The position numbers were made by a program, and so were the translations under genes. Of a stretch of 64,000 nucleotides of DNA, positions 17,739-49,815 are shown in pieces. Source of the DNA: Candidatus Latescibacterota bacterium (GTDB lineage Bacteria > Latescibacterota > UBA2968); the NCBI GenBank assembly GCA_022823725.1, contig JAJEHL010000022.1:15881-79880 (forward strand), written 5' to 3'. Below the pieces are notes generated by a model, which searched no databases, was not told the origin of the DNA, and worked only from the letters and a program-made list of their open reading frames with translations. The number at the start of each line of letters is the position of its first letter. Position 1 is the first letter of the stretch.

Positions 17739-18782
17739 TCACGCTCGTACCTCAATCTCACCGGGATGTTCTGCAACCACCTCGCCAATATCTCGAGCCA
17801 TCACACCGCGATCGTCTAACGCCTCAAGAAAAGCATTAGCCGCATCGGACGCAAGAGCAATTAACAGACCACCAGAAGTCTGCGGATCAAAAAACAAACG
17901 CCTCAAAGCCTCGTCAACATCATCGGCAAACCTCACCGCATGCCCTCGCGCCTCCCGATTGCGCCGCAAACCACCGCCCTCGCGCCCCTCTGCAATCTGC
18001 AAAGCCAGATCAAAACACGGCACATTAGAAGCGCGAATCCGAAACCCAACGCCACTCGCCTGCGCCATCTCCAACCCATGCCCGATCAACCCAAACCCCG
18101 TAATATCCGTACACCCGTCCGCATTGAATGCAACCATCTCCTCGGCTGCAATGCGATTCAACTGCACCATAGAATCCACGGCAATCTGCAAAGCATCTTC
18201 ATCGATCTCGCCATTTTGATAGGCATCCGACAACAAACCCGTACCCAGCGGCTTGGTCAAAATGAGACGATTACCCACCCGAGCACCTGCATTGGTCTTC
18301 ACATCATCTGGATGCACAACCCCCGTAACAGACAAACCGTACTTGGGTTCCACATCCTCCACAGAATGCCCACCGACCAGAACCGCACCGGACTCCGTCA
18401 CCTTCTCCTGTGCCCCTTTTAAAACCTCGGCAATCACCTCTGGCTCGACATCATCACTCGGAAACCCGCAAATATTCAGCGCAGTAATCGGACGCCCCCC
18501 CATCGCATACACATCGCTCAGCGAATTTGCTGCCGCAATCTGCCCATACGCATGCGGATCATCGACAATAGGCGTAAAAAAATCCACCGTCTGAATAAGA
18601 GCCACATCCTCAGAAATCCGAAACACGCCAGCATCATCAGCCGTATTCATCCCCACCATCAAATCGGGATGCGCCACACGCGGCAAATTTTTCAAAATCA
18701 CATCCAGCACCGCTGGATCGAGTTTCGATGCTCAACCACCGCAACTGACGAGCTGAGTCAATCTTTTAGCGCGATACTTCAT
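17739..18782 (-). CDS. selD: Selenide, water dikinase (selenophosphate synthetase), Sec-containing
   Basis: True start ATG 18782: MKYRAKRLTQLVSCGG-U(TGA 18734-18732)-ASKLDP, then DDAGV, TVDFFTP, GGHS, DITGFGL, DPQTSGGLL. Confidence 0.95.
18702..18718 (-). promoter_or_regulatory. Bacterial SECIS hairpin of selD
   Basis: ATCCAGC-GGT-GCTGGAT starting 13 nt after the UGA. Confidence 0.8.
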
Positions 18783-19609
18783 TTTTTTATTTCCTCATCT
18801 TCTCTCGCCATCTGTTCCTTTTGCCAGCGATAATCGACCTTGCCATCGTAAAACATCCCGGGGTTCTCTATCGCCCACAACTGCTTTCGAATCAACCAAT
18901 TCTTGGGATCCAGAACATAAGCGCGCTTTAATTCTGCAATCGCGTCTTCGCGCTTGCCCTGTTTTAGCAACGCGATAGCGCGCTGAAATATTGCATCGGC
19001 CTCCCGCTCATCCGCAGTCAGCGCGCGGGGTTTCGCACCCTCATCCGCATCGCGCCAGACACTGGGAACAACTCCCGATGTTATCCACTCAACCAGTTCT
19101 CCGCGCAGGGTCTCATTATCAATACTCACGCTACCAACACTGCGGACAAGTCGTCCTTCTTCATCCACAAAAATCCCAACCGGCACAAATTTCACATTAT
19201 ACGCCTTACCAATCGCATTGTGCTGATCCAGCAATGCGCGATATGTACCACCGGCTTTTTCAACCCAGGGTCTGGCAACCTCGGCACCCTGGGCATCCTG
19301 AGCAATGACCACCACCTCAACCTGCTCACCGTACTCCTGATAAAACGCTTGCCATCCAGGCAACTGAGCGCGGCACCCTCACCAGGACGCCCACATAAAA
19401 AACGCCGTCTTCTTCCCGCGAAAATCACTCGAAGAAATCATCTCCCCAGAATACAAATCCGGCAGTGTAAACGCAGGCGGCACCTGCCCAATGCTCAAAC
19501 CAATGTCATTCAGTTCAGACTCCAAAGTCTTCACAAATTCCTCCCCGGACAGGATATGAATAGGGATGAGTACACTCACCAGGATCAATACAAATGATAT
19601 TTTTTTCAT
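18779..19609 (-). CDS. Exported TlpA/AhpC-type redoxin selenoprotein (W-U-G-C) with C-terminal TPR, 276 aa
   Basis: Track ORFs 19379..19609 and 18779..19363 are in frame, separated only by TGA 19381-19379 plus 5 codons. Reads signal peptide, GQVPPAFTLPD, FFMWASW-U-GCRAQLP, YNVKFVP, TPR. Its stop overlaps the selD ATG (ATGA). Confidence 0.88.
19349..19363 (-). promoter_or_regulatory. Bacterial SECIS hairpin of the redoxin gene
   Basis: TTGCC-TGGAT-GGCAA starting 15 nt after the UGA. Confidence 0.7.
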
Positions 19610-19740
19610 CTCGTATCCAATCTAACAGAATTTGAACAAGACACAAGCCCGGTTGCATCTTTTATCCGAACCTGTGAACACCAAGCCGCTCGGCAATCAT
19701 CTCACCGAGCGGCTTGGCATGCAACGGACATCGCGTTTCA

Positions 19741-20700
19741 CTAACCGTACAGATGCGCCACATAATCGCCATACCCATTGTACATTTGGGTAGGCACGCG
19801 CTCCATCGTCCCGATCAACCGCTCCGTTGCTTGAGACCAGCGCGGGTGTGGCACATTGGGATTTACATTTGCCCAAAAATCGTACTCAGCAGGTGCCAGC
19901 TTGTTCCAGAAGGTAGGCGGTCTCTGTTTGGTAAACTCGATCTTCACAATGGACTTAATACTCTTAAATCCGTATTTCCACGGCGTAATCAACCGAATGG
20001 GCGCCCCGTGCTGCTTGGGCATCGCATGACCGTAAATACCCGTCGCGAGCATCGTCAGTTCATTCGTCGCCTCTTCCATTGTCAAGCCTTCAAAATAAGG
20101 CCACGGATACCAGGACTGCGTCTTGATACCCGGCGCCTGATCCGGACGATTGAACGTCACCATACGCACGTATTTTGCCGACGACTGGGGCTGCACATAA
20201 TCGATCAACGCCTTCATCGGAAACCCCGTCCACGGCACCGTCATCGCCCATGCTTCCACACACCGAAACCGATACACGCGCTCTTCCAGCGCGAACCGCT
20301 TGAGCAAATCATCCAGATCATACGTTCCGGGTTTCTCCACAAAGCCAGAAATCTCCACCTCCCAGGGACGCACCTCAAACTTATCCGTCAACTCGTGAAC
20401 TTTGCCCTTATTCGTGGTAAACTCGTAAAAATTATTGTATCGCGCGGCAATCTTCTCCCGGGTCAATTCCCGCTCCACCGTATAAATTTCATTGCGCTTT
20501 GCCGGATACAAACCCGGCAGTGATGGGGGGACTTCCACCTCAAACTCATCTTCTGCTGTCGCGCAACCCGCACCAATCACCGCGCTCGCGCCTGCGACAC
20601 CTATCGCTTGCATAAAGCACCGACGATTCACATAAATGTCTTCGGGCGTAACCTCGCCTTCGGGCAACTGCCAGCCTTTGGGAATATGGATAAAAGCCAT
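19741..20700 (-). CDS. msrP: Protein-methionine-sulfoxide reductase catalytic subunit MsrP (YedY), Tat-exported molybdoenzyme
   Basis: NRRCFM Tat motif, YNNFYEF, RCVEAW Mo-Cys, PWKYGFKSIKSI, HPRWSQA. Confidence 0.95.
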   Translation of the reverse strand: MAFIHIPKGWQLPEGEVTPEDIYVNRRCFMQAIGVAGASAVIGAGCATAEDEFEVEVPPSLPGLYPAKRNEIYTVERELTREKIAARYNNFYEFTTNKGKVHELTDKFEVRPWEVEISGFVEKPGTYDLDDLLKRFALEERVYRFRCVEAWAMTVPWTGFPMKALIDYVQPQSSAKYVRMVTFNRPDQAPGIKTQSWYPWPYFEGLTMEEATNELTMLATGIYGHAMPKQHGAPIRLITPWKYGFKSIKSIVKIEFTKQRPPTFWNKLAPAEYDFWANVNPNVPHPRWSQATERLIGTMERVPTQMYNGYGDYVAHLYG

Positions 20701-20732
20701 CGCCTGCCTCCAATTCTTGTTACAACGAGAAA

Positions 20733-22040
20733 TTACCGCTGATCCATCCCCACGTAATCGCGTATATCTACTCCGGTATAAATCTGGCGCGGGCGGGCGA
20801 TCTTCTGTTCGCTATCTCCCAGCATTTCTTTCCACTGCGCCAGCCAGCCACACGACCGTCCCACTGCAAATAACACCGTCATCATCCGCGTGGGCAACCC
20901 AATCGCCTGATAAATAATACCCGAATAAAAATCCACATTGGGATACAATTGCCGAGAGATAAAATACTCCTCCTGAAGCGCAATCCGCTCCAACTCCAGT
21001 GCAATATCAATCAACGGATTTTTACCCGTCACCTCAAACACACTATACGCGGTCTCTTTGACAATCGCCGCCCTGGGATCGTAATTCTTGTAAACCCGAT
21101 GCCCAAACCCTTGCAACACCACCTCTTTGTTCTCCACCCGCTCAATATAAGCTGGCACCTTATCCACCGAGCCGATCTCATTGAGCATATTGAGCACCGC
21201 CTCATTCGCGCCCCCGTGTGCCGGACCGTAAAGCGCCGCTGCTGCACCGGCCATAGATGAATACGGATCTGCCCCCCCACTGGCAATACCCCGCATAACG
21301 CTGGTAGATAAATTCTGACCGTGATCGGCGTGCAAAATAAGCAATACTTCCAGCGCGCGCTCGAGCACCGGATCAGCCCGATATGCCTCGCCCTCCGTGC
21401 CAAACAGCATATTCAAAAAATTGCCGTAAAGCCCCAAGCCGGGATCTGACGACACATAAGGCAGACCCGCACTGCGGCGATGCACCGCAGCACCTATGGC
21501 CACAACATTGCCAACCAGACGACAAATATGACGAAGTTGTGCCTCTTCGGTTCCAAAATCTCCCTCATCGTCGTAAAAAACCGACAGTGCCCCCAGCGCA
21601 CCCACCAGCATCCCCATCGTGTGAGACCCTCTGGGAAAACCATCGATAAAAGACAAAATATCGTCTGAAACCACCGTTTGAGAATTGACTTGTTCGGCAA
21701 ATGCATCGAGCTGACCGCAGCTGGGCAACTCGCCATAAACCAGCAAATAAGCCACTTCGAGATAAGACGACTCGGCCACCAACTGCTCAATGGGATATCC
21801 GCGATAGCGCAAAATCCCCTTTGCCCCATCGATATACGTAACCGAACTGCTGCAAGACGCCGTATTGACATACGACGGATCGTATCCCAAAAGTCCAAAA
21901 TCATTTTCCGAACTCTGGATTTGATTCAAATCTCCTGTGCGCACATGAGCACCGTCCTCAGAATACGTGCCATAAGTAATAGGTAAATCATACTTTTCAT
22001 CTGTCCGATTATCAATAACTGTAAGTGAATTCTTGCTCAT
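20733..22040 (-). CDS. gltA: Citrate synthase
   Basis: GILRYRGYP, HADHGQN, GPAHGGANE, GFGHRVYKNYDPRA, YPNVDFYSG. Confidence 0.95.
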   Translation of the reverse strand: MSKNSLTVIDNRTDEKYDLPITYGTYSEDGAHVRTGDLNQIQSSENDFGLLGYDPSYVNTASCSSSVTYIDGAKGILRYRGYPIEQLVAESSYLEVAYLLVYGELPSCGQLDAFAEQVNSQTVVSDDILSFIDGFPRGSHTMGMLVGALGALSVFYDDEGDFGTEEAQLRHICRLVGNVVAIGAAVHRRSAGLPYVSSDPGLGLYGNFLNMLFGTEGEAYRADPVLERALEVLLILHADHGQNLSTSVMRGIASGGADPYSSMAGAAAALYGPAHGGANEAVLNMLNEIGSVDKVPAYIERVENKEVVLQGFGHRVYKNYDPRAAIVKETAYSVFEVTGKNPLIDIALELERIALQEEYFISRQLYPNVDFYSGIIYQAIGLPTRMMTVLFAVGRSCGWLAQWKEMLGDSEQKIARPRQIYTGVDIRDYVGMDQR

Positions 22041-22088
22041 CACAAGCCCCTTTCTCATAATCCGCCCATTTGGAGGAGAATTGTTTTA

Positions 22089-22754
22089 CTATTGCGCTAT
22101 AACCTGATAAATTCTACGCGAACTGCTCTGATCTGCAGGATCGGACTGCACAGAAACCGCATCAAAAACGCGCTGCAATGCCCGTTCATAAGATCCCCCA
22201 CCCGCACAAATCGCAAGTGCTCCACCCGCCCGAAGTCGCATTTGCAACACGCGCAACATCGACAAACTATAAGCCTGGCGATTCTCTGCTCGTGCCACCT
22301 GATCTGGCCCAACATCAATATGCATCGCAATACCGTGATAATTGCGCGGTGTACCCTGCACATAAGAACAAAAATCGCCCACAATAAGCTCGACCCGTGC
22401 GTCATTTAGCAAATCGGCATTGGTCAAATAGGTGCGATTCCATTCTACAATTTGCGGCTCAATTTCCACCACACAAACGGACTGCACAGCCCTGTGCTTC
22501 AGCACCTGCCTCAGCGTCACACCCAGTCCAAGCCCACCGACCAACACATCGGCATATCTCTGACCTGGAGAAATGCCAGATAGTGCGAGGTCGGCAAGAG
22601 CGACCTCCAAATCGGAACTGCTACTCGCAATCGCACACCCATTTATAGAAAGCACATGACACCACTGCCCCTCAACCATTGTCTCATCAAGCCGAAAATT
22701 TCCATTTTGCGTCTCGACCGATGCCACATGGCTTAGCGTACTATCACTCTGCAT
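22089..22754 (-). CDS. Spermidine synthase-like SAM-dependent methyltransferase fold protein
   Basis: VLVGGLGLG motif I, VVEIE, DVGP. Confidence 0.7.
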   Translation of the reverse strand: MQSDSTLSHVASVETQNGNFRLDETMVEGQWCHVLSINGCAIASSSSDLEVALADLALSGISPGQRYADVLVGGLGLGVTLRQVLKHRAVQSVCVVEIEPQIVEWNRTYLTNADLLNDARVELIVGDFCSYVQGTPRNYHGIAMHIDVGPDQVARAENRQAYSLSMLRVLQMRLRAGGALAICAGGGSYERALQRVFDAVSVQSDPADQSSSRRIYQVIAQ

Positions 22755-22916
22755 TCATCGCGCCTTTTTTATTAAAAATTCAGTTTGGGCCAGTATTACA
22801 ATATAACGGAGATTCCAAAATTTTCAAATACATTTGGTCGGAAACAGGATCATTACTCCCTTGATTTTTAAAGCGCGAATCCCTTTATTGACGCACTGTT
22901 CAACAGGAATACACTT

Positions 22917-23738
22917 ATGAGTCAACACATCGGCAACATTGAAATCATAGCAACACATATCCCCCGCGGGCACTATCGCTCAGTGCTCTTTGATTTTGAC
23001 GGCACATTGTCGCTCATTCGCCAGGGCTGGCGCGAAATCATGATCCCTATGATGGTTGAGGTACTCTCAGAACTCAACACTGGCGAAACCGAAGCGGAAC
23101 ATCGCGCTCTGGTAGCCGAATTCATCGACCGCCTCACCGGCAAACAAACCATCTACCAGATGATTCAGTTGTGTGACGAAATCCAGAAACGCGGTGGCAC
23201 ACCAGACGATCCCCTCACCTACAAACAGCACTTTCACGACCAGCTCAACGCCCACATAGCCCATCGCATTCGCGGCCTCGAATCAGGTGATATCGCCCCC
23301 AACGACCTCATGCTGCCCCATACCCGCGCCCTGCTCGACAACCTGACCAAACGCGGCCTGGTACTTTATTTAGCCAGCGGCACCGACCTCGTCTTTGTCC
23401 GCCGCGAAGTCGAATTACTCGGCCTTACGGCCTACTTTGAAGACCGCGTCTTTGGCGCATTGGATCAGCACGAAAACTTTTCCAAAGCCATGGTCATTCA
23501 GAACATGCTCGAAACCCACGCCATAGACGGTTCTGAACTCCTCGGATTTGGCGATGGATACGTCGAAATCGAAAACGTAAAAGCCGTGGGCGGCACCGCT
23601 GTCGGCGTCGCATCAGACGAAGTCAAACGCGAAGGCATCAATGCCTGGAAGCGAAACCGCCTCATCGAAGTCGGTGCAGATATCATCATCCCGGAATACC
23701 GCGAGCAAGAAACCCTCATCGCGTATCTGTGTGATTAA
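22917..23738 (+). CDS. HAD family hydrolase
   Basis: FDFDGTLS, LASGT, GFGDG..E. Confidence 0.88.
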   Translation: MSQHIGNIEIIATHIPRGHYRSVLFDFDGTLSLIRQGWREIMIPMMVEVLSELNTGETEAEHRALVAEFIDRLTGKQTIYQMIQLCDEIQKRGGTPDDPLTYKQHFHDQLNAHIAHRIRGLESGDIAPNDLMLPHTRALLDNLTKRGLVLYLASGTDLVFVRREVELLGLTAYFEDRVFGALDQHENFSKAMVIQNMLETHAIDGSELLGFGDGYVEIENVKAVGGTAVGVASDEVKREGINAWKRNRLIEVGADIIIPEYREQETLIAYLCD

Positions 23739-23757
23739 CCACCCTAAAGGAGTTGAC

Positions 23758-24882
23758 ATGAAAATCACCAAACTCGAAACCTTCCTCGTCAAACCGCGCT
23801 GGCTCTTTCTCAAAATGCACACAGACGAGGGCCTCGTTGGCCTTGGCGAACCCATCCTCGAAGGACGCGCCCTTACATGTGCCCAGGCCGTAGCAGAACT
23901 CGAGCCCTATCTCATCGGCAAAGATCCCCGTCGCGTGGTCCATCACTGGCAGGCCATGTATCGCCATGCATTTTATCGCGGCGGACCCATTCTCACCAGC
24001 GCCCTATCCGGTGTCGAACAAGCACTTTGGGACCTCGCCGGAAAAGCCGCAGACATGCCCGTCTATGAAATGCTCGGCGGACCCTTGCGCGACCGCATCA
24101 AAATGTACAAAGGCACGGGAGGGGGCGGCACGCCCGAACAAGCCGCTGCCGCAGTAAAAGAGCGCAAAAAACAGGGATTTATCGCCATAAAGACCGGTCC
24201 AGCCAAAATTCGCCCGGCACGCATCGTCGAAAACCCGGCATTTATCGATCACGCCATCGAAACATTTGCCGCCATGCGCGAAGCGGGCGGACCGGACTTT
24301 GACATCGCCATCGACTTTCACGGCGCCATATCACCGCAAACCGCCGCCATCCTCATCAAAGCACTCGAACCCTACCAACCGATGTTTGTCGAAGAACCCA
24401 TCCAGTGTCAAGACATAGAAGGCATGGCAGAACTCGCGCGCAAAACCCACTTGCCCATCGCAACAGGCGAACGCATCTTCACCAAATGGGGCTTCCGAGA
24501 ACTCCTCGAAAAACGCGCCTGTTCCATCATACAACCCGACCTGTCACACGCTGGCGGCATCTTCGAGACCCGTCTGATTGCGGGCATGGCAGAATCCTAT
24601 TACGCCGCCGTTGCCCCGCACTGTCCACTGGGTCCCATTTCATTAGCTGCCTGTATCCAGCTCGACGCCAGCATACCCAACTTTCTCGCGCAAGAACACA
24701 CCATGTTTGGCGAAGACTACCTCAAAGAACCGTTCCAATTCAAAGACGGCTACGTCGAATTGCCCAAAGGTCCCGGCCTTGGCATTGAACTGGACGACGA
24801 CAAAATGGAAGACAAAATTGGCCACGACTGGAATAATCAAAGATCCCTTCACCCAGATGACGGATCGGTCGTCGATTGGTAA
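23758..24882 (+). CDS. dgoD: Galactonate dehydratase (enolase superfamily)
   Basis: MKITKLETF, GLGEP, DFHG, EEP, ATGER, APHCPLGP. Start moved to 23758 (RBS AAGGAG). Confidence 0.85.
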   Translation: MKITKLETFLVKPRWLFLKMHTDEGLVGLGEPILEGRALTCAQAVAELEPYLIGKDPRRVVHHWQAMYRHAFYRGGPILTSALSGVEQALWDLAGKAADMPVYEMLGGPLRDRIKMYKGTGGGGTPEQAAAAVKERKKQGFIAIKTGPAKIRPARIVENPAFIDHAIETFAAMREAGGPDFDIAIDFHGAISPQTAAILIKALEPYQPMFVEEPIQCQDIEGMAELARKTHLPIATGERIFTKWGFRELLEKRACSIIQPDLSHAGGIFETRLIAGMAESYYAAVAPHCPLGPISLAACIQLDASIPNFLAQEHTMFGEDYLKEPFQFKDGYVELPKGPGLGIELDDDKMEDKIGHDWNNQRSLHPDDGSVVDW

Positions 24883-24894
24883 CTGCAAAAGCGC

Positions 24895-24990
24895 GAATAG
24901 ACGAACCCCGCCCAACCACCCAAAACCTCTGGATTGCGGCTTAAAGCCTGCCGCAATGACGGCTTTCAGGTACATTACCTGCTTCATTGA
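24895..24990. repeat. REP-like family, long copy D
   Basis: Matches B, G and H; followed by GTTGATTC units. Confidence 0.9.
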
Positions 24991-25023
24991 TTCGTTGATT
25001 CACTGATTCCTTAAGGAGACCTC

Positions 25024-25761
25024 ATGTCACAACTCACTGGAAAAATCGCACTCGTCACAGGCAGTGGACGGGGTATTGGTCGCGCCATTGCCATCGCCTT
25101 TGCCAAAGAAGGAGCCGACCTCATACTCGCCGCACGCACGACCGAACAACTCGATGCCGTTGCCGAAGAAATTCGCGCCCTCGGTCGCAAAGTCTTGTCC
25201 GTCCCCACCGACGTCACCAACCGCGAGAGCGTAGATGCACTGGCAGAAAAAGTCCGCGGAGAATTTGACCGCCTGGACATCCTCGTCAACAACGCGGGCG
25301 GCGGCATAGAGCGCAACAGCATCCTCGACAGCGATCCCGATCTCTGGATCAAAGATGTCACGGTAAACTGCATCAGCGCCTACCTCGTCTCACACGCCCT
25401 GCTCCCCCTCATGATTGACTCCGGCGGTGGCAGAGTCATCAACGTGGGATCGGGCATGGGCCATCGCCCCAGAGCGGGCGGTTCTGCGTATCAAGTCGGC
25501 AAAGCCGGCATGTGGATGTTCACCCAATCCCTCTCAGAAGAAGTCTGGGAAAACAACATCACGGTCAACGAACTCATCCCCGGCCCGGTAGCCACACGTC
25601 TTACCGGCGACCGCATGAGAGTGGGCGGTCCACCACCCTTCGCACCCAGCGAAGTCGTCAAAGCACCCGAAGATGTCGCCCCCCTCGCGCTCTTCTTAGC
25701 CACCCAACCCGACGGGGGACCGACCGCTCAAACCTTCAGCCTGACCCGTCGCCCGATCTAA
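25024..25761 (+). CDS. SDR family oxidoreductase
   Basis: TGSGRGIG, NNAG, YQVGK. Confidence 0.92.
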   Translation: MSQLTGKIALVTGSGRGIGRAIAIAFAKEGADLILAARTTEQLDAVAEEIRALGRKVLSVPTDVTNRESVDALAEKVRGEFDRLDILVNNAGGGIERNSILDSDPDLWIKDVTVNCISAYLVSHALLPLMIDSGGGRVINVGSGMGHRPRAGGSAYQVGKAGMWMFTQSLSEEVWENNITVNELIPGPVATRLTGDRMRVGGPPPFAPSEVVKAPEDVAPLALFLATQPDGGPTAQTFSLTRRPI

Positions 25762-25783
25762 CCCCATCCCAAAAGGAACAGCT

Positions 25784-27736: not shown

Positions 27737-27742
27737 AAAAAT

Positions 27743-27958
27743 ATGACACGACAATTTGCTCTCTGCATCAATAACGAGGGATACGAGGCATCTCTTGAAG
27801 TGGGTAAGGTTTATCGCATGATTCCCGATGAAGAAGCCTCTGCGCCTGGCTATATTCGCATCATTGATGAAAGTGGTGAAGATTATGCCTTTAGCGACCA
27901 CCACTTTTATCGTATTGACCTGCCCAATGCCGTTGGGGAGATATTGGCATCTGCGTAG
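27743..27958 (+). CDS. Small hypothetical protein
   Basis: 71-aa ORF right after the preceding gene and ahead of a terminator; composition differs from its neighbours. Confidence 0.6.
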   Translation: MTRQFALCINNEGYEASLEVGKVYRMIPDEEASAPGYIRIIDESGEDYAFSDHHFYRIDLPNAVGEILASA

Positions 27959-39862: not shown

Positions 39863-39878
39863 AAACAGGAAAACAACC

Positions 39879-41114
39879 ATGAACGACCAAATGCAACACG
39901 CCCGCGATGTCGCACTCGGCATCCTCAAACCGTCACAGCGCGACCTGGAACACGGCCTGGAACTCCACGAACACGCCCTCGTCATCGAATCCTACGGCCT
40001 AGGCCTGCGCTCACCCATTGATCCCGACCCCGTCAACGCAGCCATCGAAGCAGGCGCGTCTGACCGCGAACTGCAAGACCTCACCGAAGACATGGGCATG
40101 ACCCGCTGGGCACTCACACCCGAACTCCGTCGAGAATACCGGGAAATCTGGCATGCCTCTGGCGTCACCTGCACCTTTCAAAACGCAGGCGAAGAATGCA
40201 ACGACCCCCTGCGCATCATCAAACGCCTTGCCCGACACACGTACAACACCGACGCCATGCCCGACTTCCTCCAGCGCGTCACCACGCCCGACGACATCGT
40301 CGCAGCCCACAAAGCGGGCAAACGCTGCACCTATCTCACCTGCAACGGCATTCCACTCGCCGGCGACCAGACCAACCCCGAAGAGGAACTGCGCTACATC
40401 CGCGTCTTTGCACAACTGGGCGCGCGCATGATGCACCTCACGTACAACCGCCGCAACCCCATCGGAGATGGCTGCGGCGAACCCAACGACGCGGGCTTGA
40501 GCGACTTTGGACATGCCACAGTCGCCGAAATGAACCGCCTCGGCATCATCATTGACCTCTCCCACACCGGCTGGCAAACCTGCCTCGACGCAGCAAAAGC
40601 ATCCGCACAACCCGTCGTCGTCAGCCACTCCGTCGCCTGCACACTCAACGAACACATCCGAAGCAAACCCGACAACATCATCCGCGCAGTACTCGACACC
40701 GGGGGCACCATGGGCATCACCAATGTACCCGCATTCCTCGGCGGCAACGGCGACATCGGTGCCTTCCTCGACCACATTGACTACGTCGCCAAAACCTTTG
40801 GCACCGACGCCGTCACCATCGGCACAGACCGAGGCTACCCTTCTCAATACATCGCCGAAGCCAACCGCAAACTCAACCCCCGTCCCAAACAGCGCAACCG
40901 CTGGGAAGCACTCTGGCCGCCCAGAGACCCTCTCCATTCCTCCGAATGGCGACAACCCCACCAGGAACAAAGCCTCACCTGGACCAACTGGCCCCTCTTC
41001 ACCGTCGGCCTTGTGCAACGGGGCTACAGCGACGACGACATCGCAAAAATCATCGGCGGCAACATCCTCCGCGTAGCACGAGACGTCTGGAAAGACTCAG
41101 TTTACGCGGTCTAA
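39879..41114 (+). CDS. Membrane dipeptidase family (M19) amidohydrolase
   Basis: HLTYNRRN..GDGC, DLSH, VSHS, IGTD, IIGGNILRV. Confidence 0.85.
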   Translation: MNDQMQHARDVALGILKPSQRDLEHGLELHEHALVIESYGLGLRSPIDPDPVNAAIEAGASDRELQDLTEDMGMTRWALTPELRREYREIWHASGVTCTFQNAGEECNDPLRIIKRLARHTYNTDAMPDFLQRVTTPDDIVAAHKAGKRCTYLTCNGIPLAGDQTNPEEELRYIRVFAQLGARMMHLTYNRRNPIGDGCGEPNDAGLSDFGHATVAEMNRLGIIIDLSHTGWQTCLDAAKASAQPVVVSHSVACTLNEHIRSKPDNIIRAVLDTGGTMGITNVPAFLGGNGDIGAFLDHIDYVAKTFGTDAVTIGTDRGYPSQYIAEANRKLNPRPKQRNRWEALWPPRDPLHSSEWRQPHQEQSLTWTNWPLFTVGLVQRGYSDDDIAKIIGGNILRVARDVWKDSVYAV

Positions 41115-41136
41115 AAAATAAAAAGGGAGGAAAATC

Positions 41137-42264
41137 ATGAGCAAAGCGCGTCAAATCTACGAAGACCTGGGCGTTGTCCCTGTAATCAACGCATCGGGAT
41201 ATCAGACCGTCATTGGCGGGTCGCGAGTAGGCACAGAAGTGCAAGCCGCAATGGACATAGCGAATCGCTACTTTGCGGACATGGAAGCACTACTCAAAAA
41301 AACCGGCGCAATCATCGCCGACACCCTCAGCGCAGAAGCGGCAATGGTCACACCTGGATGCGCGGCAGCATTAGCCCTCAGCTCAGCCGCCTGCATGTCG
41401 GGCAGCGACCCCGAGAAAATGGAACAATTGCCCGACACAACGGGCATGAAACATCACATTTTAATACAAAAAAAACAGCGCTATCACTACGACCCGGTAC
41501 TCACTGTCTTCGGCGCCAAACTCATCGAAGTAGGCGATGAAAACGGAACAACCGAAGCCCAACTCGAAGCCGCCATATCAGACCAGACCGCAGCCATCCA
41601 CTATTTCGCACCCGGAGGCCAGGCAGGCGTCCTATCCCCCGAAGACGTCGTCCGCATCGCCCACGCCAACGGGATACCCGTCATCGTCGATGCAGCGAGC
41701 CAGGTCTATCCCCTCGAAACCATGCTAAAATATCCCGACATGGGCGCAGATCTAATCGGCTACGGCGCAAAATACATTGGCTCGTGTCACTCCACAGGCA
41801 TCTTGTGTGGACGCAAAGACCTCATCGACGCCGCCTTTCTCCACTCCTTCATCGGTTATGAAACCTGCCCTTACGACACCATAGGCCGCCCGCTAAAAGT
41901 AGATCGGCAAGAAGTCATCGCCGTCGTCGTTGCCCTGCGCGAATGGTTCAGCATGGACCACGAAACGCGCCTATCCGAATACAAACGCAAAGCCGAAGCA
42001 CTACTATCAGACCTGAAAGACATCCCCCACATCGCAGCCAAATTCTCGGCCGACTCACGAGGCCTGAGCGATGGCGTACACATCACAGTCGATGAAACCG
42101 CACTGGGCAAAACCGCAGCGCAAATAATCGAAGAACTTCGACAGGGCAATCCATCCGTATGGACACGCGGCAGCGCAAACACCTTCCGCGTCGCCGTAAC
42201 CAACTTCATCGAAGACGACCAGGAAATCGTCACCGCACGCCTGCGCGAAATACTGACCGGATAA
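41137..42264 (+). CDS. SelA-like / DgaE family PLP-dependent enzyme (probably not true SelA)
   Basis: VINASG..T.IGGS, VDAAS, YGAKYIG (PLP Lys), GRPLKV.RQE; 375 aa, with no N-terminal tRNA-binding extension. Confidence 0.8.
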   Translation: MSKARQIYEDLGVVPVINASGYQTVIGGSRVGTEVQAAMDIANRYFADMEALLKKTGAIIADTLSAEAAMVTPGCAAALALSSAACMSGSDPEKMEQLPDTTGMKHHILIQKKQRYHYDPVLTVFGAKLIEVGDENGTTEAQLEAAISDQTAAIHYFAPGGQAGVLSPEDVVRIAHANGIPVIVDAASQVYPLETMLKYPDMGADLIGYGAKYIGSCHSTGILCGRKDLIDAAFLHSFIGYETCPYDTIGRPLKVDRQEVIAVVVALREWFSMDHETRLSEYKRKAEALLSDLKDIPHIAAKFSADSRGLSDGVHITVDETALGKTAAQIIEELRQGNPSVWTRGSANTFRVAVTNFIEDDQEIVTARLREILTG

Positions 42265-42290
42265 CTTGCCACACAAAATCCCAACATAAA

Positions 42291-42322
42291 AAACGCCATC
42301 AGCTATTTTGCCGATGGCGTTT
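42291..42322. terminator. Bidirectional terminator
   Basis: AAACGCCATC / GATGGCGTTT between convergent genes. Confidence 0.8.
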
Positions 42323-42338
42323 GTGCTTATAACCTCTC

Positions 42339-43124
42339 TCAACCCCGTGCGAGATCGCGATACGCCCTGAACAGATCGGAATAATAAGCCACAAACATCC
42401 ACAGATCGCCCACCCCCTTATCGGGACGCCGCTCTGTCTCTGCCGACATGTAGCCCTCATAGCCCTTCTCGTGCAGCAGCCGGAACAACTCGCGATACGG
42501 ATAGCCCTGTCCCGCCAGATCGTGCATATGCACGTGATCCAGCCAGGGCCACACCATATCCAATGCCTGTTTCACAGATCCATCCACCACATCTTGCGGC
42601 ACCGAATTCCACACCAACCCAAAATTCTCGTGATCCACCTGCTCGGCCACTGCCCGGCATGCTTGCCAATCGAACTCACCGTGCAACTCCAGGCAGGGCT
42701 TTACCCCCTTCTCAGCACCGTAATCACACAGCGGCTTCAGGGCCTTTGCCACCTGAGCAATCGTCTGTTCCCTGGGCACTTCTGCTGGAAAATTATTCCC
42801 AAACACGCGCACGCGAGGCGCGCCCAGATCAGACGCCAGATCCATCCGAACCATCGTCTGCTCAATATGATCTCGAAGCTCGTCCGGATCCGTATCGTGA
42901 TACCGATTGCCAGTCGCAATACTCATAATATCGATCCCCATCGCCTCACAATCTGCCACCACCTGCTCTCGTTCTGCCTCGTCAATTGACGCCTCCACCC
43001 CGTGACCATGCCCCGCATCCGTGCGAAACTCCACCCCCTCAAACCCATGATCCTTCAACATCTGCAACAAATCCCGTCGGGAAAGATCCTTCAAAACACC
43101 ATAAGTCATCCACGAAGGTTTCAT
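42339..43124 (-). CDS. Sugar phosphate isomerase/epimerase (TIM barrel)
   Basis: GFEGVEFR, LELHG, HVHMHD, SAETE. Confidence 0.85.
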   Translation of the reverse strand: MKPSWMTYGVLKDLSRRDLLQMLKDHGFEGVEFRTDAGHGHGVEASIDEAEREQVVADCEAMGIDIMSIATGNRYHDTDPDELRDHIEQTMVRMDLASDLGAPRVRVFGNNFPAEVPREQTIAQVAKALKPLCDYGAEKGVKPCLELHGEFDWQACRAVAEQVDHENFGLVWNSVPQDVVDGSVKQALDMVWPWLDHVHMHDLAGQGYPYRELFRLLHEKGYEGYMSAETERRPDKGVGDLWMFVAYYSDLFRAYRDLARG

Positions 43125-43219
43125 GCTTATTCTCCTATTGAGTTAAAATTGCCTATCTCGATCAACTGGGCACCTGCAACAAAATCAACATCTTTTACGT
43201 CCTTATCCCGCCAGATATA

Positions 43220-43247
43220 TTGACAAACGGGCAGGTTGATCTATAAT
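43220..43247 (+). promoter_or_regulatory. Consensus sigma70 promoter for the R-M gene
   Basis: TTGACA-16 nt-TATAAT. Confidence 0.7.
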
Positions 43248-43310
43248 ATACTGAAAGGGTAGAAAACCTGGTGGATTTTCCATATCCAAAACCATCTAAA
43301 ATCTCACCGC

Positions 43311-45854
43311 GTGACTACTCCCAACGCTGAAGCTGTTGGGCTTTACGGGCTATTAGGTAAAATGATAGATATCAATGGACAACGCAATATACTGGACCAG
43401 GTTGATCTTCTTAGATATAACCTCGTTGTAAATGGCAAAAAGAAAAACCACCTCGGCCAGTTCTTTACTCCTGCTCCGATAGCTGAGTTCATGGCACAGA
43501 TGTTTCGCATATCAGAAGCCTCTGTTCATTTACTCGATGCTGGTGCTGGAATAGGGTCTCTTTCTGCTGCTTTTGCCGATTATGTCTGCACACAGAAGCA
43601 TCTCCCGAAGGAATTTACAATCACAGCCTATGAAATTGATGCTTCATTGACGCCACTTTTAGAAAATACATTGAACGCTTGCCGCTCAAAATGTGAGCAA
43701 CTGGGCATCCATTTTAGCTACAAAATAATCAATGAAGATTTTGTCAAAGCTGCTACATCTGCACTCAGACAAGATCTGTTCTCTCCCCATGTCAAAAAGT
43801 TCAATTATGCTATTCTCAATCCCCCTTACAAAAAAATCCAGAGTTCTTCTGAACACAGAAAATTATTGCGTCGCCTTGGGATTGAAACGAGCAATCTTTA
43901 TACAGCCTTTCTTGCAATAATAAAAAAATTATTAACTGACAAAGGACAACTCGTTGCAATTACACCGAGAAGCTTCTGCAATGGACCTTATTTCAAAGCA
44001 TTTAGAAATGACTTTCTTAAAGAAATGGCATTAAAGAGAATTCACATCTTTGAATCCAGAAAAAGGGCCTTCAGCGATGATGGTGTGCTGCAAGAAAACA
44101 TCATTTTTCAGGCGATCAAATCTAAGGCAAAACCATCAGAGATAGCGATTTCATCTCATTCATCTCCAGGAGACCCTCTATTCTGGAGAGATGTTGAACA
44201 TGACCAGGTGATACATCCAGAGGATCCCGATAAGTTCATTCACATCATTACAGATGAGATGGACCATCAAATAGCCGAAAAGATGAAGCATTTTCAATCA
44301 ACTCTGGAGGAGCTTGGCATTTCGGTGTCAACGGGCAGAGTGGTTGATTTTCGAGCGGACAAATTCTTGAAACAGGTGCCAAATAAAAAAACCGTGCCCT
44401 TAATTTATCCCATGCATTTCCAGCAAGGTTTTATTGAATGGCCCCCCAAAAACAGCAAGAAACCCCATGCCATTATTTTTTCAGAAGAATCCAAAAATTT
44501 ATTGGTCCCGTCTGGCACGTATGTTTTAGTAAGGCGTTTCTCTACAAAGGAAGAAAAGCGCAGGATCGTAGCTGCTATCTATGATCCAGAGCGAATAAAA
44601 TCAGAAACAGTAGGCTTTGAGAACCATCTGAATTATTTCCATTGCAATGGAAAAGGACTGCCTACAAGCCTTGCAAAAGGACTGGCAGTTTTTCTCAATT
44701 CAATGATGGTTGACGCTTACTTCAGATTGTTCAACGGCCATACTCAGGTAAATGCTACGGACTTGAGAAGTCTAAAATACCCTTCAAGAGTAAAACTCGA
44801 ATCTCTGGGGGAAAAAATTAAGGACAGATTACCGGATGACGATGCGTTAGATAATTTAATTGAGCAAGAGGTCTTTGATATGGCAAATGAAAGCGGGAAA
44901 CCAGATCCAATCAAAAGCAAACAAAAGATAGAAGCGGCACTCGCAATACTGAAATCTATTGGTATGCCAGGTGCTCAGCAGAATGAGCGTTCAGCATTAA
45001 CCCTGCTGGCATTGATCGATGTAAAGTCTGAAACGCAGTGGGAGGATGCGAATAATCCTTTGATCGGCATTACACCCATCATGAATTTTGCGGCTGACCA
45101 TTATGGGAAACAATACGCACCAAATACGAGAGAGACCGTTAGAAGACAGACAGTACATCAGTTTTTGGATGCTGGCATTATCCGCATCAACCCCGATGTT
45201 CCCAATAGACCGACCAACAGCCCTAATACGGTATATCAAATTGAAGACTCTACTCTTGACCTGATCCGCTCTTATGGCAGTGCAAACTGGAATGAAGAAT
45301 TAGAGAAATTCCTGCTATCAAGAGAGACTTTGCAAGCGAAGTATGCACAGGAACGTCAGGAACGAAAAATCCCCGTTGATATATCAAACACAATCCAGGT
45401 AAATCTCTCCCCTGGGGGACAAAACGAGCTTGTTAAGAAAATCATTGAGGATATGTTTCCCAATTTCGCACCTGAAGGCACGATAATCTATCTTGGGGAT
45501 ACTGCCAGCAAATTTGCCTATTTTGACCGGAAAGCACTTGAAATGTTAGGTGTAGATATTGAAGACCACGGTAAGATGCCAGATGTGGTCATTCATCATA
45601 AGAAAAAAAATTGGTTGCTGCTTATCGAAGCTGTAACCAGTCATGGTCCTGTTGATCCAAAACGTCGAGGAGAGTTGCAAAAACTCTTTGAAACCTCAAA
45701 AGCAGGACTTGTTTTTATTACAACATTTTTGACTCGAAGAGATATGATGAGATATCTCCCTGAAATCTCCTGGGAAACAGAAGTCTGGATCGCTGAATCT
45801 CCGACGCATATGATACATTTTGACGGGGAGAGGTTTTTAGGGCCTTATGAATGA
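43311..45854 (+). CDS. Fused N6-adenine methyltransferase + BsuBI/PstI-family restriction endonuclease
   Basis: LGQFFTP, DAGAGIG, NPPY, GHTQVNATDL in the N-terminal ~520 aa. From Met524: ERSALTLLAL, RETVRR, MPDVV...IEAVTSHGP, SWETEVW. Alternative start ATG 43362. Confidence 0.9.
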   Translation: MTTPNAEAVGLYGLLGKMIDINGQRNILDQVDLLRYNLVVNGKKKNHLGQFFTPAPIAEFMAQMFRISEASVHLLDAGAGIGSLSAAFADYVCTQKHLPKEFTITAYEIDASLTPLLENTLNACRSKCEQLGIHFSYKIINEDFVKAATSALRQDLFSPHVKKFNYAILNPPYKKIQSSSEHRKLLRRLGIETSNLYTAFLAIIKKLLTDKGQLVAITPRSFCNGPYFKAFRNDFLKEMALKRIHIFESRKRAFSDDGVLQENIIFQAIKSKAKPSEIAISSHSSPGDPLFWRDVEHDQVIHPEDPDKFIHIITDEMDHQIAEKMKHFQSTLEELGISVSTGRVVDFRADKFLKQVPNKKTVPLIYPMHFQQGFIEWPPKNSKKPHAIIFSEESKNLLVPSGTYVLVRRFSTKEEKRRIVAAIYDPERIKSETVGFENHLNYFHCNGKGLPTSLAKGLAVFLNSMMVDAYFRLFNGHTQVNATDLRSLKYPSRVKLESLGEKIKDRLPDDDALDNLIEQEVFDMANESGKPDPIKSKQKIEAALAILKSIGMPGAQQNERSALTLLALIDVKSETQWEDANNPLIGITPIMNFAADHYGKQYAPNTRETVRRQTVHQFLDAGIIRINPDVPNRPTNSPNTVYQIEDSTLDLIRSYGSANWNEELEKFLLSRETLQAKYAQERQERKIPVDISNTIQVNLSPGGQNELVKKIIEDMFPNFAPEGTIIYLGDTASKFAYFDRKALEMLGVDIEDHGKMPDVVIHHKKKNWLLLIEAVTSHGPVDPKRRGELQKLFETSKAGLVFITTFLTRRDMMRYLPEISWETEVWIAESPTHMIHFDGERFLGPYE

Positions 45855-45929
45855 TATTTTATTTTTTTAAAAATGGCGGATCAGTGCGTCAATATAAAAG
45901 GTAGGGAATTGAAGATAGGATGATGCGAC

Positions 45930-46739
45930 TTATTCCAGATCGGGGAGTTCCTCACGGGACAGGAGCAGCTTGATTGAGCGCGCTTGGCGGGGAACTCTCG
46001 ATATAAGACCGCGTTTTTCCAGGGTTTTGAGCATGCTGTTAACGGAAGGGCCTGTGATGCCAAAATACCTCTGTATATCTGCCTGGGCCGGGGGATAACC
46101 GTTCAACTTCGTATAATAATAGATAAATGTCAGATATTGTCCCTGTCTATGGGTATATACTGGTGCCTTCTCTCGCTTGAAGACCTTGTAGCAGTCGAGA
46201 AAAGATAGCATCCGATTGCTTTCCTCAAGATCAAAATTTTCGGGATCGAATAGCTCTCCTATCCACTCTGAATACATTTCATGCTCTGGATGATTTTTGT
46301 TCTGAAGTGCGCTTAAACATTCCTCGTACCCCCAAACGCCACCCACATCCTCTGGTGGGCATGCGCGTTTTCCCGTCAGACAGATAGGATAAAACACCCC
46401 GGCTTCTGGCTCCTTGATCTGTTCAACCCGAATCATGTGTTCCCAGCTATCACCGAAATCATATTCATATATGATTTGCGCCCCAACCTCAACGGCGACC
46501 TGCTGAAGAGAGGTTTCGTTTGCATTTCGATTATCCATTCCCCAGTCTAACATGCCTGGATAAGGGGTGCTATAATAGGTATCGTCAACGATGAATTGGT
46601 GAAGATGAGAATCTGTCCATCCCATCACAATCTGAATCACCTGGTGCAATTCTCCAAGTGAGATGTTGCCATCAACCTCAACTCGCCGCCATATCGGCGG
46701 TCTGGAACCCGTTAGAGTAATTTTGAGTCGATAGATCAT
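45930..46739 (-). CDS. Plasmid pRiA4b ORF-3 family protein with C-terminal LexA-like winged HTH
   Basis: PPIWRR, HLHQF, YEYDFGDSWEH, GKRACPPEDVGG; then T.RQGQYL.FI...PP...I...F.IT..SV..ML..LE.RG.I.R. Confidence 0.85.
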   Translation of the reverse strand: MIYRLKITLTGSRPPIWRRVEVDGNISLGELHQVIQIVMGWTDSHLHQFIVDDTYYSTPYPGMLDWGMDNRNANETSLQQVAVEVGAQIIYEYDFGDSWEHMIRVEQIKEPEAGVFYPICLTGKRACPPEDVGGVWGYEECLSALQNKNHPEHEMYSEWIGELFDPENFDLEESNRMLSFLDCYKVFKREKAPVYTHRQGQYLTFIYYYTKLNGYPPAQADIQRYFGITGPSVNSMLKTLEKRGLISRVPRQARSIKLLLSREELPDLE

Positions 46740-47877
46740 GATGTATTCCTTTTAAAACTCCCAATGCACTTGAGACAGATTTTGCGATTGCATAACCCAC
46801 CGGTGGACAAACAGAATTGCCAATTTGCCCAAGCATCTGGTAAGCTGCGCCTTGAAAAATCCAATCTTCTGGGAATCCCTGAAGAAGCGCACAATCCTGA
46901 ACAGAAAGCCTGAAATGACCATTCTCCGGGGGAAACATCATGGCTTCTTCTCTGGACTTTTGCACGCCATTGGGCCAAATCTGGAGTTTTTCCCACACCT
47001 TTTGACTCGCCTTACTATTCAAAATGCTGGTCGATTTTCTGGGACCAGTGAAGCCAGAGCGAAGCGTAGGCGCAAAGCAATCAAAACCAATATCTTCCAG
47101 ACCCAAAGCAGCCCTCGTTCCCATCGTATGTCTGCCAGAGTAGAACAAGCTATCTTTGGAGAAATGGGTCGGTTCAGGAATTTTGTAGCGATTGACTACT
47201 TGGAGAGACCGAAAGCCAACAAAAATAACTCGCTTCCTGATTTGTGGCACGCCGAAGTCGGATGCGACAGCTTCGAACTTTACGATGTGATAATGCGGTG
47301 TCAGTGGCGCGAGAATCACCTCGTTTACATACTTATCGAACTTTGGATTGAGCAAGCCTGGAACATTCTCAGCAATGAAAGCCTCGGGCATGAGCGTTAG
47401 CAAAGCATCAATAAATGCGGGCCACATATCTCTGTCGTCTTTGCTCCCACTCTGCTTTCCGGCAATTGAAAAAGGCTGGCAGGGAGGACCTCCGTGAATG
47501 AGATCTACTTTACCCTTATATGTTGACCAATCTGTTTTTGTAACATCACCCTTTGAGCCATACAGAACGCTCCATTGCGGACGGTTTTGTTGGAGTGTTG
47601 CGCCACAAATATCCAGGATATCAAAACTGGCAACATGCTCAAACCCTGCATATTCAAAACTAAGATCCAAACCGCCACCACCCGAAAAGAGAGAGAGGGA
47701 TCTCAAGCCGTTTTGTCGTTGTTTTGGCATCAACTTCTCTGGTTTCAGAACAGGCTTATTGATTCTGCCCAGTTCCTGTTGCAACTCACCATTGATTGCG
47801 GCCTTCTTCCTGAGTCTGGATCGAGTAGAAATCTCTCGATACCACTCCCGTTTGGCCTCCGATATATCGTATGGCAT
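46678..47877 (-). CDS. DNA (cytosine-5) methyltransferase, no adjacent cognate endonuclease
   Basis: LFSGGGGLDL, GGPPCQPFS, ENVPG, PQIRKRV, QGFP, IGNSVCP. Confidence 0.93.
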   Translation of the reverse strand: MPYDISEAKREWYREISTRSRLRKKAAINGELQQELGRINKPVLKPEKLMPKQRQNGLRSLSLFSGGGGLDLSFEYAGFEHVASFDILDICGATLQQNRPQWSVLYGSKGDVTKTDWSTYKGKVDLIHGGPPCQPFSIAGKQSGSKDDRDMWPAFIDALLTLMPEAFIAENVPGLLNPKFDKYVNEVILAPLTPHYHIVKFEAVASDFGVPQIRKRVIFVGFRSLQVVNRYKIPEPTHFSKDSLFYSGRHTMGTRAALGLEDIGFDCFAPTLRSGFTGPRKSTSILNSKASQKVWEKLQIWPNGVQKSREEAMMFPPENGHFRLSVQDCALLQGFPEDWIFQGAAYQMLGQIGNSVCPPVGYAIAKSVSSALGVLKGIHHDLSTQNYSNGFQTADMAAS

Positions 47878-47986
47878 TATTTTTTCTCTAATCTGTTGGA
47901 ATAAACGACAACTCTGTACAAAGTATAGCTATGCTTATCCGTTTTGCCCACCCTAAAATACGCAACATCATCAGACTTCATAGATC

Positions 47987-49096
47987 CTATAACCTGTCCA
48001 CCTGCGTCTCTCCGCGCTTCAGCTCTTCCATAAGCTCATCGTATTGATCCCGATCAACCGGAAATGCAACCTCCTCTTTTCGTATAGCCGAAAGCACAAT
48101 CGCGTTAATCAACTCCAGTGTTCGCCGCGCCGTCACCCCATCTGTAATCGCCTCGCCACCATCCAGAATCGCGGAAACAAAACTCTCCACCAGTGTTTGC
48201 CCGCCCTCATCGGACGGCACATCCTCCCAGCTAATACCTGGCTGATGCCCCTTTGCCCCCTTTATAAACGCCCGCATAGGCGCCTCGTACCGCCCCAGCC
48301 GAAACACATCTGGCACCTTTGAATTGGCATTCTTCTCATCCCGAAACTCAATCGTACCCAGATCCCCTGAAATCTGCCTGTAATTCAACCGTCGATCACA
48401 CGTACTCAACTGCACATTCGCATGGGCACCACAGGCAAAACGGATATTGGCAACAACCGTATCCTCAATCTCCACCCGATGACCCCAATTGCACATCATC
48501 GCAGAAACCGCAACCGGATCGCCCACCATCCAGCACAGCAAATCCAGATCGTGGCTGGTCTGATTCATCAGCACCCCGCCCCCTGCGTGCTCCCAGGTAC
48601 ACCGCCAGATATCCCGGTCGTAATACACCTCTGGCCGCGTCTCAATCCACATCCACAGCACCCGGTAAATCTCTCCCAGTGCCCCCTCATCAATCAGCCG
48701 CTTCAACGCGCGATTGCCGGGAAACGTGCGATAATTGTGTCCCACCGCCAGCTTCAGATCCCGCGCCTGCGCCGCCTCAATCATCCTATCCGCTTCGGAA
48801 ACCGTATTCGCAATCGGTTTCTCCACAAAAGTATGCAACCCCGCCTCCAGACAATCCAACCCCATCGGCGCGTGGAGATGGTGCGGCGTTGCAATCACCA
48901 CCGCATCCAGATCCTCGGACGCGATCATCTCCCGGTAATCGCCCCAGGCGCGCGCACCCCGCTCTTCCCCAACCTGCCGCGCATAATCCAGATCCAGATC
49001 CGCCACCGCCACCAACTCCGCCCGATCCAGTCCTGAAATCTCCCGTACATGCTGCCCGCCCATACCCTTCAAACCGACCACACCGAACCTGACCAT
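47987..49096 (-). CDS. Gfo/Idh/MocA family oxidoreductase
   Basis: VVGLKGMG, EKP, GGGVLMNQTSHDLD. Start moved to 49096. Confidence 0.9.
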   Translation of the reverse strand: MVRFGVVGLKGMGGQHVREISGLDRAELVAVADLDLDYARQVGEERGARAWGDYREMIASEDLDAVVIATPHHLHAPMGLDCLEAGLHTFVEKPIANTVSEADRMIEAAQARDLKLAVGHNYRTFPGNRALKRLIDEGALGEIYRVLWMWIETRPEVYYDRDIWRCTWEHAGGGVLMNQTSHDLDLLCWMVGDPVAVSAMMCNWGHRVEIEDTVVANIRFACGAHANVQLSTCDRRLNYRQISGDLGTIEFRDEKNANSKVPDVFRLGRYEAPMRAFIKGAKGHQPGISWEDVPSDEGGQTLVESFVSAILDGGEAITDGVTARRTLELINAIVLSAIRKEEVAFPVDRDQYDELMEELKRGETQVDRL

Positions 49097-49114
49097 AACG
49101 CTCTCCTTGATATG

Positions 49115-49140
49115 AGGGGCGAGGCATGCCTCGCCCCTAC
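49115..49140 (-). repeat. GTAG-type REP palindrome (single copy in the window)
   Basis: Minus strand GTAG-GGGCGAGGCATGCCTCGCCC-CT, a perfect palindrome. Confidence 0.6.
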
Positions 49141-49251
49141 GGTTGCTTTTCGCGCCTGATAGCTTATTTGCAGCACAGTACACCCATCAGACATATTGAC
49201 AAACAACGTGTCAATCCATAATATTCAAAAAACAAACTCGGAGGACTCCCC

Positions 49252-49815
49252 ATGCCCAACACCTTCCAAAATCGCGCCGAAGCCTTTGCCTGGCTCAGCC
49301 AAAATGACCCCCGTGCGCCCAAAGCAGGAGATCCCGCGCCAGACTTTGAACTATCGGACATCAACGGCGAAAACCCCGTGCGCCTCTCGCAACTATGCAA
49401 AGACAAACCCGTTGCACTCATCTTTGGCAGCTTCACGTGACCGCCCTTTGTCCGCGAGGCGGTCAGCCTCCGCGACCTCTATGCAACATATCACAAACAG
49501 GTACACTTTCTCGTAATCTATATCCGCGAAGCCCATCCAGAAGACGGCTGGAAACTCAAAGACACGGGCATCTACGACCCAAAAACCCTTGCGGAACGCC
49601 GAAAAGTTGCAAAAACATGCGAAAATGCTATGCAATACGGCATACGCACCTATGTTGACGACATGGACGACGCTGTCATGAACGACTATGTCGCCTGGCC
49701 CGAACGCCTCTACCTCATCGGCACGGACAACCGCATCGCCTACGCGGGCAAACACGGTCCCTATGGATTCAGCCCCGAAGAACTCAAAGCGGCAATAGAT
49801 CACATCACCCGTTGA
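49252..49815 (+). CDS. Iodothyronine deiodinase-like selenoprotein (Sec at TGA 49438-49440), 187 aa
   Basis: Track ORFs 49252..49440 and 49630..49815 share a frame. Readthrough gives GDPAPDF...FGSFT-U-PPF...YIREAHPEDGW...YVAWPERLYLI...GPYG, the deiodinase signature. Confidence 0.92.
49450..49476 (+). promoter_or_regulatory. Bacterial SECIS hairpin of the deiodinase-like gene
   Basis: GAGGC-GGTCA-GCCTC upper stem 15 nt after the UGA, with extendable lower pairing. Confidence 0.75.

Follow-up and report, generated by a model that had tools for sequence, protein, structure and literature searches.

Three probable bacterial SECIS elements share a loop spacing of 20 nt in a Latescibacterota genome, a value that is not a lineage rule

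In the established Escherichia coli paradigm of selenocysteine (Sec) incorporation, SelB bound to the apical loop of a selenocysteine insertion sequence (SECIS) presents Sec-tRNA(Sec) to a ribosome paused at UGA (PMC8659212). The minimal element of fdhF is a 17-nt stem-loop located 11 nt from the UGA, with G23, U24 and a bulged U17 (PMC8659212, citing Liu et al. 1998). Reading fdhF directly, we found its loop, GGUC, at +18, spacings being given here as the number of nucleotides between the codon and the loop. The bacterial SECIS (bSECIS) model admits loops of 3–9 nt, stems of 4–16 bp, a spacing of 16–37 nt and a minimum free energy (MFE) of at most -7.5 kcal/mol, and asks for one G or more at loop positions 1–2, with G or U usually coming next (PMC13188914). 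Here we describe three hairpins from a 64,000-nt stretch of DNA of Candidatus Latescibacterota bacterium (the window; contig JAJEHL010000022.1, our C25, positions 15881–79880, from a 5.34-Mb assembly with 51% G+C). They follow in-frame UGA codons in selD, in a gene for a ResA/TlpA-like redoxin and in a deiodinase-like gene, and in all of them the loop lies at +20. We conclude, with a probability of about 0.88, that all three are bacterial SECIS elements, and that the shared 20 nt is a coincidence within a narrow window in which each gene family keeps its own value.

In selD (selenide, water dikinase; 17739–18782, minus strand, 347 aa), the UGA at 18732–18734 corresponds to Sec17 in the motif SCGG-U-ASK. 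It is followed, after a 13-nt spacer, by the 7-bp hairpin AUCCAGC-GGU-GCUGGAU (18702–18718, loop at 18709–18711). The redoxin gene (18779–19609, minus strand, 276 aa) encodes an exported protein with a TPR tail and has its UGA at 19379–19381, corresponding to Sec77 in WASW-U-GC; here, a 15-nt spacer precedes the 5-bp hairpin UUGCC-UGGAU-GGCAA (19349–19363, loop at 19354–19358). Finally, in the deiodinase-like gene (49252–49815, plus strand, 187 aa), the UGA at 49438–49440 corresponds to Sec63 in FGSFT-U-PPF and is also separated by 15 nt from a 5-bp hairpin, GAGGC-GGUCA-GCCUC (49456–49470, loop at 49461–49465). In this last case the helix continues below the apical part with two bulged C residues, so that the whole element spans 49450–49476. 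These readings agree exactly with a preliminary description of the locus, which had given the same stems, loops and 20-nt distance, and had pointed to a GG among the first loop positions: it occupies positions 1–2 in selD, 2–3 in the redoxin gene and 1–2 in the deiodinase-like gene.

The three genes are split at the UGA by open reading frame (ORF) callers, yet they are whole selenoprotein genes. Each one contains a single TGA, located at the position of the catalytic Cys according to profile matches, and in-frame coding potential runs on past all three. SelD scored 373.6 bits against TIGR00476, above the curated cut-off of 125. Regarding the deiodinase-like protein, it reached 107.5 bits with PF00837, over a gathering threshold of 27, and 181.8 bits with NF038285, below the cut-off of 250. 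The redoxin matches the AhpC/TSA (PF00578) and Redoxin (PF08534) domains and carries the motif of NF041054 (WAxxUGC_long), for which it scored 147.5 bits with a cut-off of 300; it differs from this ‘long’ model in being shorter and in having a C-terminal TPR segment. The three proteins resemble the SelD, deiodinase-like (PF00837) and ResA-like WAxxUGC (NF041054) families in having Sec in place of the catalytic Cys, within the motifs GG-U-ASK, GSxT-U-PPF and WAxW-U-GC, respectively. Besides, the genome contains the complete Sec machinery (selA, selB, selC and selD). The preliminary description took the hairpins as cross-validation of the three Sec calls. These are independently proven, since homology, the conservation of the TGA in orthologues and the presence of the whole machinery all support them.

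When compared with the bSECIS model, as implemented in bSECISearch, the hairpins show no qualitative difference, and the view that they conform to it was borne out for every sequence and folding feature of the published consensus. They stand directly downstream of a Sec-UGA within a coding region, where the UGA aligns with Cys or Sec of homologues. Their loops are 3, 5 and 5 nt long, their stems 7, 5 and 5 bp, and their spacing 20 nt; the loops GGU, UGGAU and GGUCA each carry a G at position 1 or 2. All three stems are present in the MFE structure that RNAfold gives for the 60 nt after the UGA, and are retained when the first nucleotides after this codon are omitted. These 60-nt segments have energies of -15.6, -15.6 and -15.5 kcal/mol, and the apical hairpins alone -8.5 (selD), -5.6 (redoxin) and -7.8 kcal/mol (deiodinase-like), so the redoxin element passes the -7.5 kcal/mol limit only with its flanks. 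With the fdhF element they share a small apical loop that contains G-G-U and is placed at a short, fixed distance from the UGA, and differ from it in that their loops are 2 nt farther away and their stem sequences are unrelated. They are new instances of a well-described element and add nothing conceptually to the bSECIS model.

Hairpins placed in this way are rare at control sites. We applied an objective rule that takes the lowest-energy contiguous hairpin whose loop lies 12–37 nt beyond the codon and has G as its first or second base, with an energy of at most -5.5 kcal/mol. By this rule, the loop was at exactly +20 in the three Sec codons of the window and in no other of the 14 Sec codons of the genome, nine of which (64%) had it at +18 to +22. 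At the true TGA stops that close long genes (n = 1206), the loop lay at +18 to +22 in 1.1% of cases and at exactly +20 in 0.17% (2/1206). The corresponding values were 1.5% and 0.37% (11/3000) for in-frame Cys codons (n = 3000), and 2.2% and 0.37% (11/3000) for out-of-frame TGAs (n = 3000). Since control sites give only 0.17 to 0.37%, finding three out of three at +20 is far beyond chance, and the pattern is clearly not as common after true stop codons as after these UGAs.

The hairpins are also conserved. In up to 60 relatives, the orthologues of all three retain one TGA and a hairpin with its loop at +20, which is also the position of the RNAalifold consensus loop in each of the three alignments, and the TGA is retained in all close orthologues, at 50–99% identity. 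In selD, the single TGA is retained in 58 of 61 relatives and the hairpin is kept in 28 orthologues, with A-U to G.U as the sole type of change. In the redoxin gene, all close orthologues have a single TGA, and the stem alternates between UUGCC...GGCAA and CUGCC...GGCAG: pair 19–33 is C-G in 14 sequences, U-A in 8 and unpaired in none, and it changes at synonymous sites (the first position of a Leu codon and the third of a Gln codon). Overall, 97% of the alignment cells of this hairpin are paired, vs 13–77% when the partner is slid. In the deiodinase-like gene, which has a single TGA in all orthologues, 88.9% of the cells are paired over ten pairs, two of which are changed on both sides, as where the stem GAGGC/GCCUC becomes CAGGC/GCCUG. 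Two distant homologues (L033 and L036) carry a Cys codon instead, and their sequence after this TGC differs from that of the Sec orthologues. At the level of synonymous variation, third-codon-position entropy inside and outside the hairpin was 0.27 vs 1.06 in selD and 0.31 vs 1.11 in the redoxin gene, that is, sites within the hairpin are three to four times less variable than those in the flanks.

The GG did not hold as a shared feature of the loops once orthologues were considered. In most deiodinase orthologues of the same genus the loop is AGUUA, which does not start with GG and rules this dinucleotide out as a conserved signature, and in some redoxin orthologues it is CGGGU. What is maintained across orthologues is xGU or xGG, as in these two loops.

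Several observations weigh against reading the three hairpins as SECIS elements. In folding energy, the 60-nt segments did not fall significantly below dinucleotide shuffles (z = -1.4, +0.6 and -1.4 for selD, the redoxin gene and the deiodinase-like gene), and the redoxin hairpin is weak by itself, at the -5.6 kcal/mol given above. It is thus the position of the hairpins, the content of their loops and their conservation that carry the argument, and not stability. Compared with the fdhF type, the stems are perfect and lack the bulged U that the E. coli element requires, and the loops are at +20. Moreover, the suppression of third-position variability is weak in the deiodinase-like gene (0.85 inside vs 1.08 outside), much of the conservation of the hairpins is confounded with that of the amino acids they encode, and the clear compensatory changes are few and probably represent one evolutionary event each.

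If the three hairpins work as their E. coli counterpart does, a ribosome reaching the in-frame UGA would find SelB-GTP-Sec-tRNA(Sec) retained by the apical loop immediately outside the channel through which the mRNA enters, and this complex would deliver selenocysteine to the A site in place of termination by release factor 2. The loop, with its G followed by G or U, would be the part that needs a fixed reach from the UGA. A 13-nt spacer with 7 bp and a 15-nt spacer with 5 bp lead to the same position because it is the loop, and not the base of the stem, that stands at a constant distance, as might be expected if the loop is what SelB reads. That SelB binds and that the UGA is actually read through at the three sites are presumed here by analogy with the mechanism of E. 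coli and Moorella. The identity at 20 nt would then be a coincidence inside a tolerated window, of around 18–21 nt in this genome, in which each gene family may hold its own value across long evolutionary distances.

The preliminary description had instead proposed the exact shared geometry as a lineage-specific pattern. One could argue, along these lines, that exactly 20 nt is a hard requirement of SelB-ribosome geometry in Latescibacterota, 2 nt longer than in E. coli and usable as a signature, and the three genes of the window, with a distance kept in their orthologues, would speak for it. In order to contextualize this value, we looked at the other selenoprotein genes. The selenoproteome encoded here is rich (at least 14 Sec-gene candidates), and the eleven outside the window were assembled from coding potential and homology and not from hairpins, except for a DUF5069 gene that was first found by a hairpin scan. 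By the objective rule, the loop was at +18 in FdhA (GGUCU), at +19 in a protein of the UGSC family (NF041046, 161 bits), in a secreted thioredoxin-fold (Trx-fold) protein with the motif YNUGTC and in the DUF5069 protein, and at +21 in MoeB (516 bits), ArsC and a Prx/SelL-like protein. The M20D amidohydrolase gave +32, or a 4-bp hairpin at +18, and a second secreted Trx-fold protein (GHGUPTC) gave +16 or +22. There was no qualifying hairpin in PrxQ/BCP, in which the one at +21 has the loop CAGGAGC, nor in a rhodanese. Hence, none of the eleven has its lowest-energy loop at +20; the genes for ArsC and the Prx-like protein can be drawn at this position, in favor of the proposed requirement, only if the terminal closing pair is opened.

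Comparisons beyond this genome point in the same direction. The GGUCU loop of FdhA is held at +18 across the genus and the order, with compensatory changes in the stem; therefore, the same SelB serves +18. The E. coli fdhF loop stands at this very distance (GGUC vs GGUCU in FdhA). A more distant type of selD within the same class has CAGUCC-GGUC-GGACUG, with the loop at +17, while orthologues of the deiodinase-like gene in Anaerolineales, which belong to another phylum, have GGGAC-GGUCA-GUCUC and relatives of it with the loop at +20. Because FdhA has +18 in E. coli too and the deiodinase-like +20 recurs in Anaerolineales, the spacing appears to be inherited with the gene family and not set by the lineage. 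Together with the lack of any genome-wide excess at +20 (see below), these results make a fixed lineage requirement unlikely, and the value of exactly 20 nt is no rule of the lineage. That three genes share one value is an unremarkable coincidence, with a chance of about 1 in 25 if spacings are spread over five positions.

It is more improbable still that the hairpins are by-products of conserved codons with no function at the RNA level, Sec insertion, if any, depending on something else. The regions concerned do encode conserved peptides (PPFVREAVSLRD, QLPGWQ and LDPAVLD), and the folding z-scores are unremarkable. Against this, synonymous positions stay fixed or covary within the stems, whereas those in the flanks drift, such hairpins follow only 1.5% of the Cys codons of ordinary genes, and the Cys homologues of the deiodinase differ downstream of the TGC. 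Besides, three unrelated peptides would need to produce the same RNA geometry by accident. As for at least one UGA being a true stop or a pseudogene lesion, with the hairpin acting as, for instance, a terminator or an attenuator, the splitting of the three genes by ORF callers would fit, but the chances of it are negligible given that coding potential continues in frame, that the TGA is present in every close orthologue and stands where known selenoprotein families have their catalytic Cys, and that no T-run was seen after the hairpins at any of the three sites.

Turning back to the hairpins as SECIS elements, we evaluated how well their pattern performs as a gene finder. In its literal form (a Watson-Crick stem of at least 5 bp, a loop of 3–7 nt, GG within the first three loop bases and the loop at +20), it occurs at 120 of the 175,789 TGA triplets of the genome (6.8e-4), with no peak at +20, since the mean over offsets of 8–35 nt is around 105 matches. 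There is no genome-wide excess at +20 because the true sites are too few, and the pattern alone is therefore not a detector. Only five of the 120 matches are real (selD, the redoxin, the deiodinase-like protein, ArsC and the Prx-like protein), a precision of about 4%. Hence, of the idea that a genome scan with this pattern would reveal hidden selenoproteins, the part that stands is its use with coding context: matches at +20 that also have a coding-like read-through ORF are real genes only, and those at +19 and +21 with such an ORF contributed two doubtful ORFs besides the DUF5069 gene. The literal pattern recovers two of the eleven further genes, in both cases with the terminal closing pair opened as described above, and in its exact form it misses FdhA, UGSC, MoeB, BCP, the rhodanese, M20 and the two secreted Trx proteins. 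When a window of +18 to +22 is used together with coding context, Sec codons (64%) can be told apart from stops and Cys codons (1–2%). The practical value of the pattern is modest, and the figures above measure what it gives bare and with coding context.

Regarding the read-through ORFs, a screen for Sec/Cys paralogues by self-tblastn on 1032 loosely filtered ones returned many TGAs aligned to R, G, W or stop, which on inspection were antisense or out-of-frame artefacts arising from paralogous genes and not cases of recoding. A best-of-six-frames coding filter was used in its place and left 212 candidates. Seven further read-through candidates (x17, x18, x28, x41, x116, x191 and x209) were discarded because they resembled spurious antisense ORFs or neighbouring genes.

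The spacings found in this genome (+18 to +21 in 10 of the 14 genes) are tighter than the 16–37 nt allowed by the bSECIS model. It is tempting, at somewhat less than even odds, to generalize that loop distance is heritable per selenoprotein family within a window of about 4 nt, and that a filter narrowed in this way surfaces candidate families. If so, the narrowed filter plus coding potential would cut false positives around 5- to 8-fold, and it would already surface two candidate families here, an M20D amidohydrolase with Sec and the DUF5069 protein. The most useful general point is that, across phyla, it is the gene family and not the lineage within which spacing is conserved.

As for the genomic context, the redoxin gene, selD and the tRNA-Sec gene form a compact, gapless unit on the minus strand (17643–19609). 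The redoxin stop overlaps the selD start as ATGA (18779–18782), and the tRNA-Sec gene (selC, 17643–17736, minus strand, anticodon UCA; 68.5 bits with Rfam RF01852 and called tRNA-SeC by ARAGORN) begins 2 nt past the selD stop. Judging from match coordinates, the adjacency of the redoxin gene and selD is retained in relatives. The deiodinase-like gene is around 30 kb away from this unit, on the opposite strand. Far from the selD-selC unit, selA (576 bits) and selB (396 bits, above the cut-off) are adjacent to each other on contig 31 (C31:88120–91379, minus strand). Directly upstream of the redoxin gene there is a PF00174 molybdopterin oxidoreductase of the MsrP/sulfite-oxidase type (19741–20700). 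ARAGORN also reported a 92-nt ‘tRNA-Pro(cgg)’ at 19017–19108 on the minus strand, within the redoxin coding sequence; Rfam finds none there, and it is probably a false positive.

Among the other candidates of the genome, the M20D amidohydrolase (C45:66631–67956, plus strand; TIGR01891, 200 bits) contains a TGA, in frame, within the motif HG-U-GHN. Of 41 relatives from the genus, family and order, 39 keep one in-frame TGA, at 70–98% identity, and its position in the motif was confirmed in 20 same-genus loci that were extracted. Downstream of the UGA there are two conserved hairpins, whose loops lie at +18 (GUU) and +32 (AGGU). The Sec falls within an H-x-C-G-H motif, in which the aligned Cys is a metal ligand. 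The DUF5069 protein (PF16798, 55 bits) is small and is encoded on the minus strand of contig C2, with the TGA at 0-based reverse-strand index 2847 and the motif YVYP-U-PADRKF. Its UGA is followed by AAGUUCC-UGGA-GGAACUU, with the loop at +19, and it has a Cys paralogue on contig C48. A keyword search in the main text of a 2026 review that covers over 110 families of prokaryotic selenoproteins found no mention of amidohydrolase, M20 or peptidase, nor of DUF5069.

The rhodanese selenoprotein (C39:23412–24236, minus strand; motif VPY-U-QGGYRS) keeps its TGA throughout the order, and two relatives have Cys there (TGT or TGC). It has no bSECIS-type hairpin at +16 to +25 and only a poorly conserved one near +36, and is an exception to the model. 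Finally, the two secreted Trx-fold selenoproteins, with the motifs GHG-U-PTC (contig C35, minus strand, index 174442) and YN-U-GTC (contig C39, plus strand, index 12321), are both joined to repeats of Ig-like or ‘choice-of-anchor D’ domains and to a dockerin-like tail. In both genes, the lowest-energy fold pairs bases 3–12 after the UGA, which a ribosome on this codon would cover, and there are alternative hairpins with loops at +16 and at +18 or +19.

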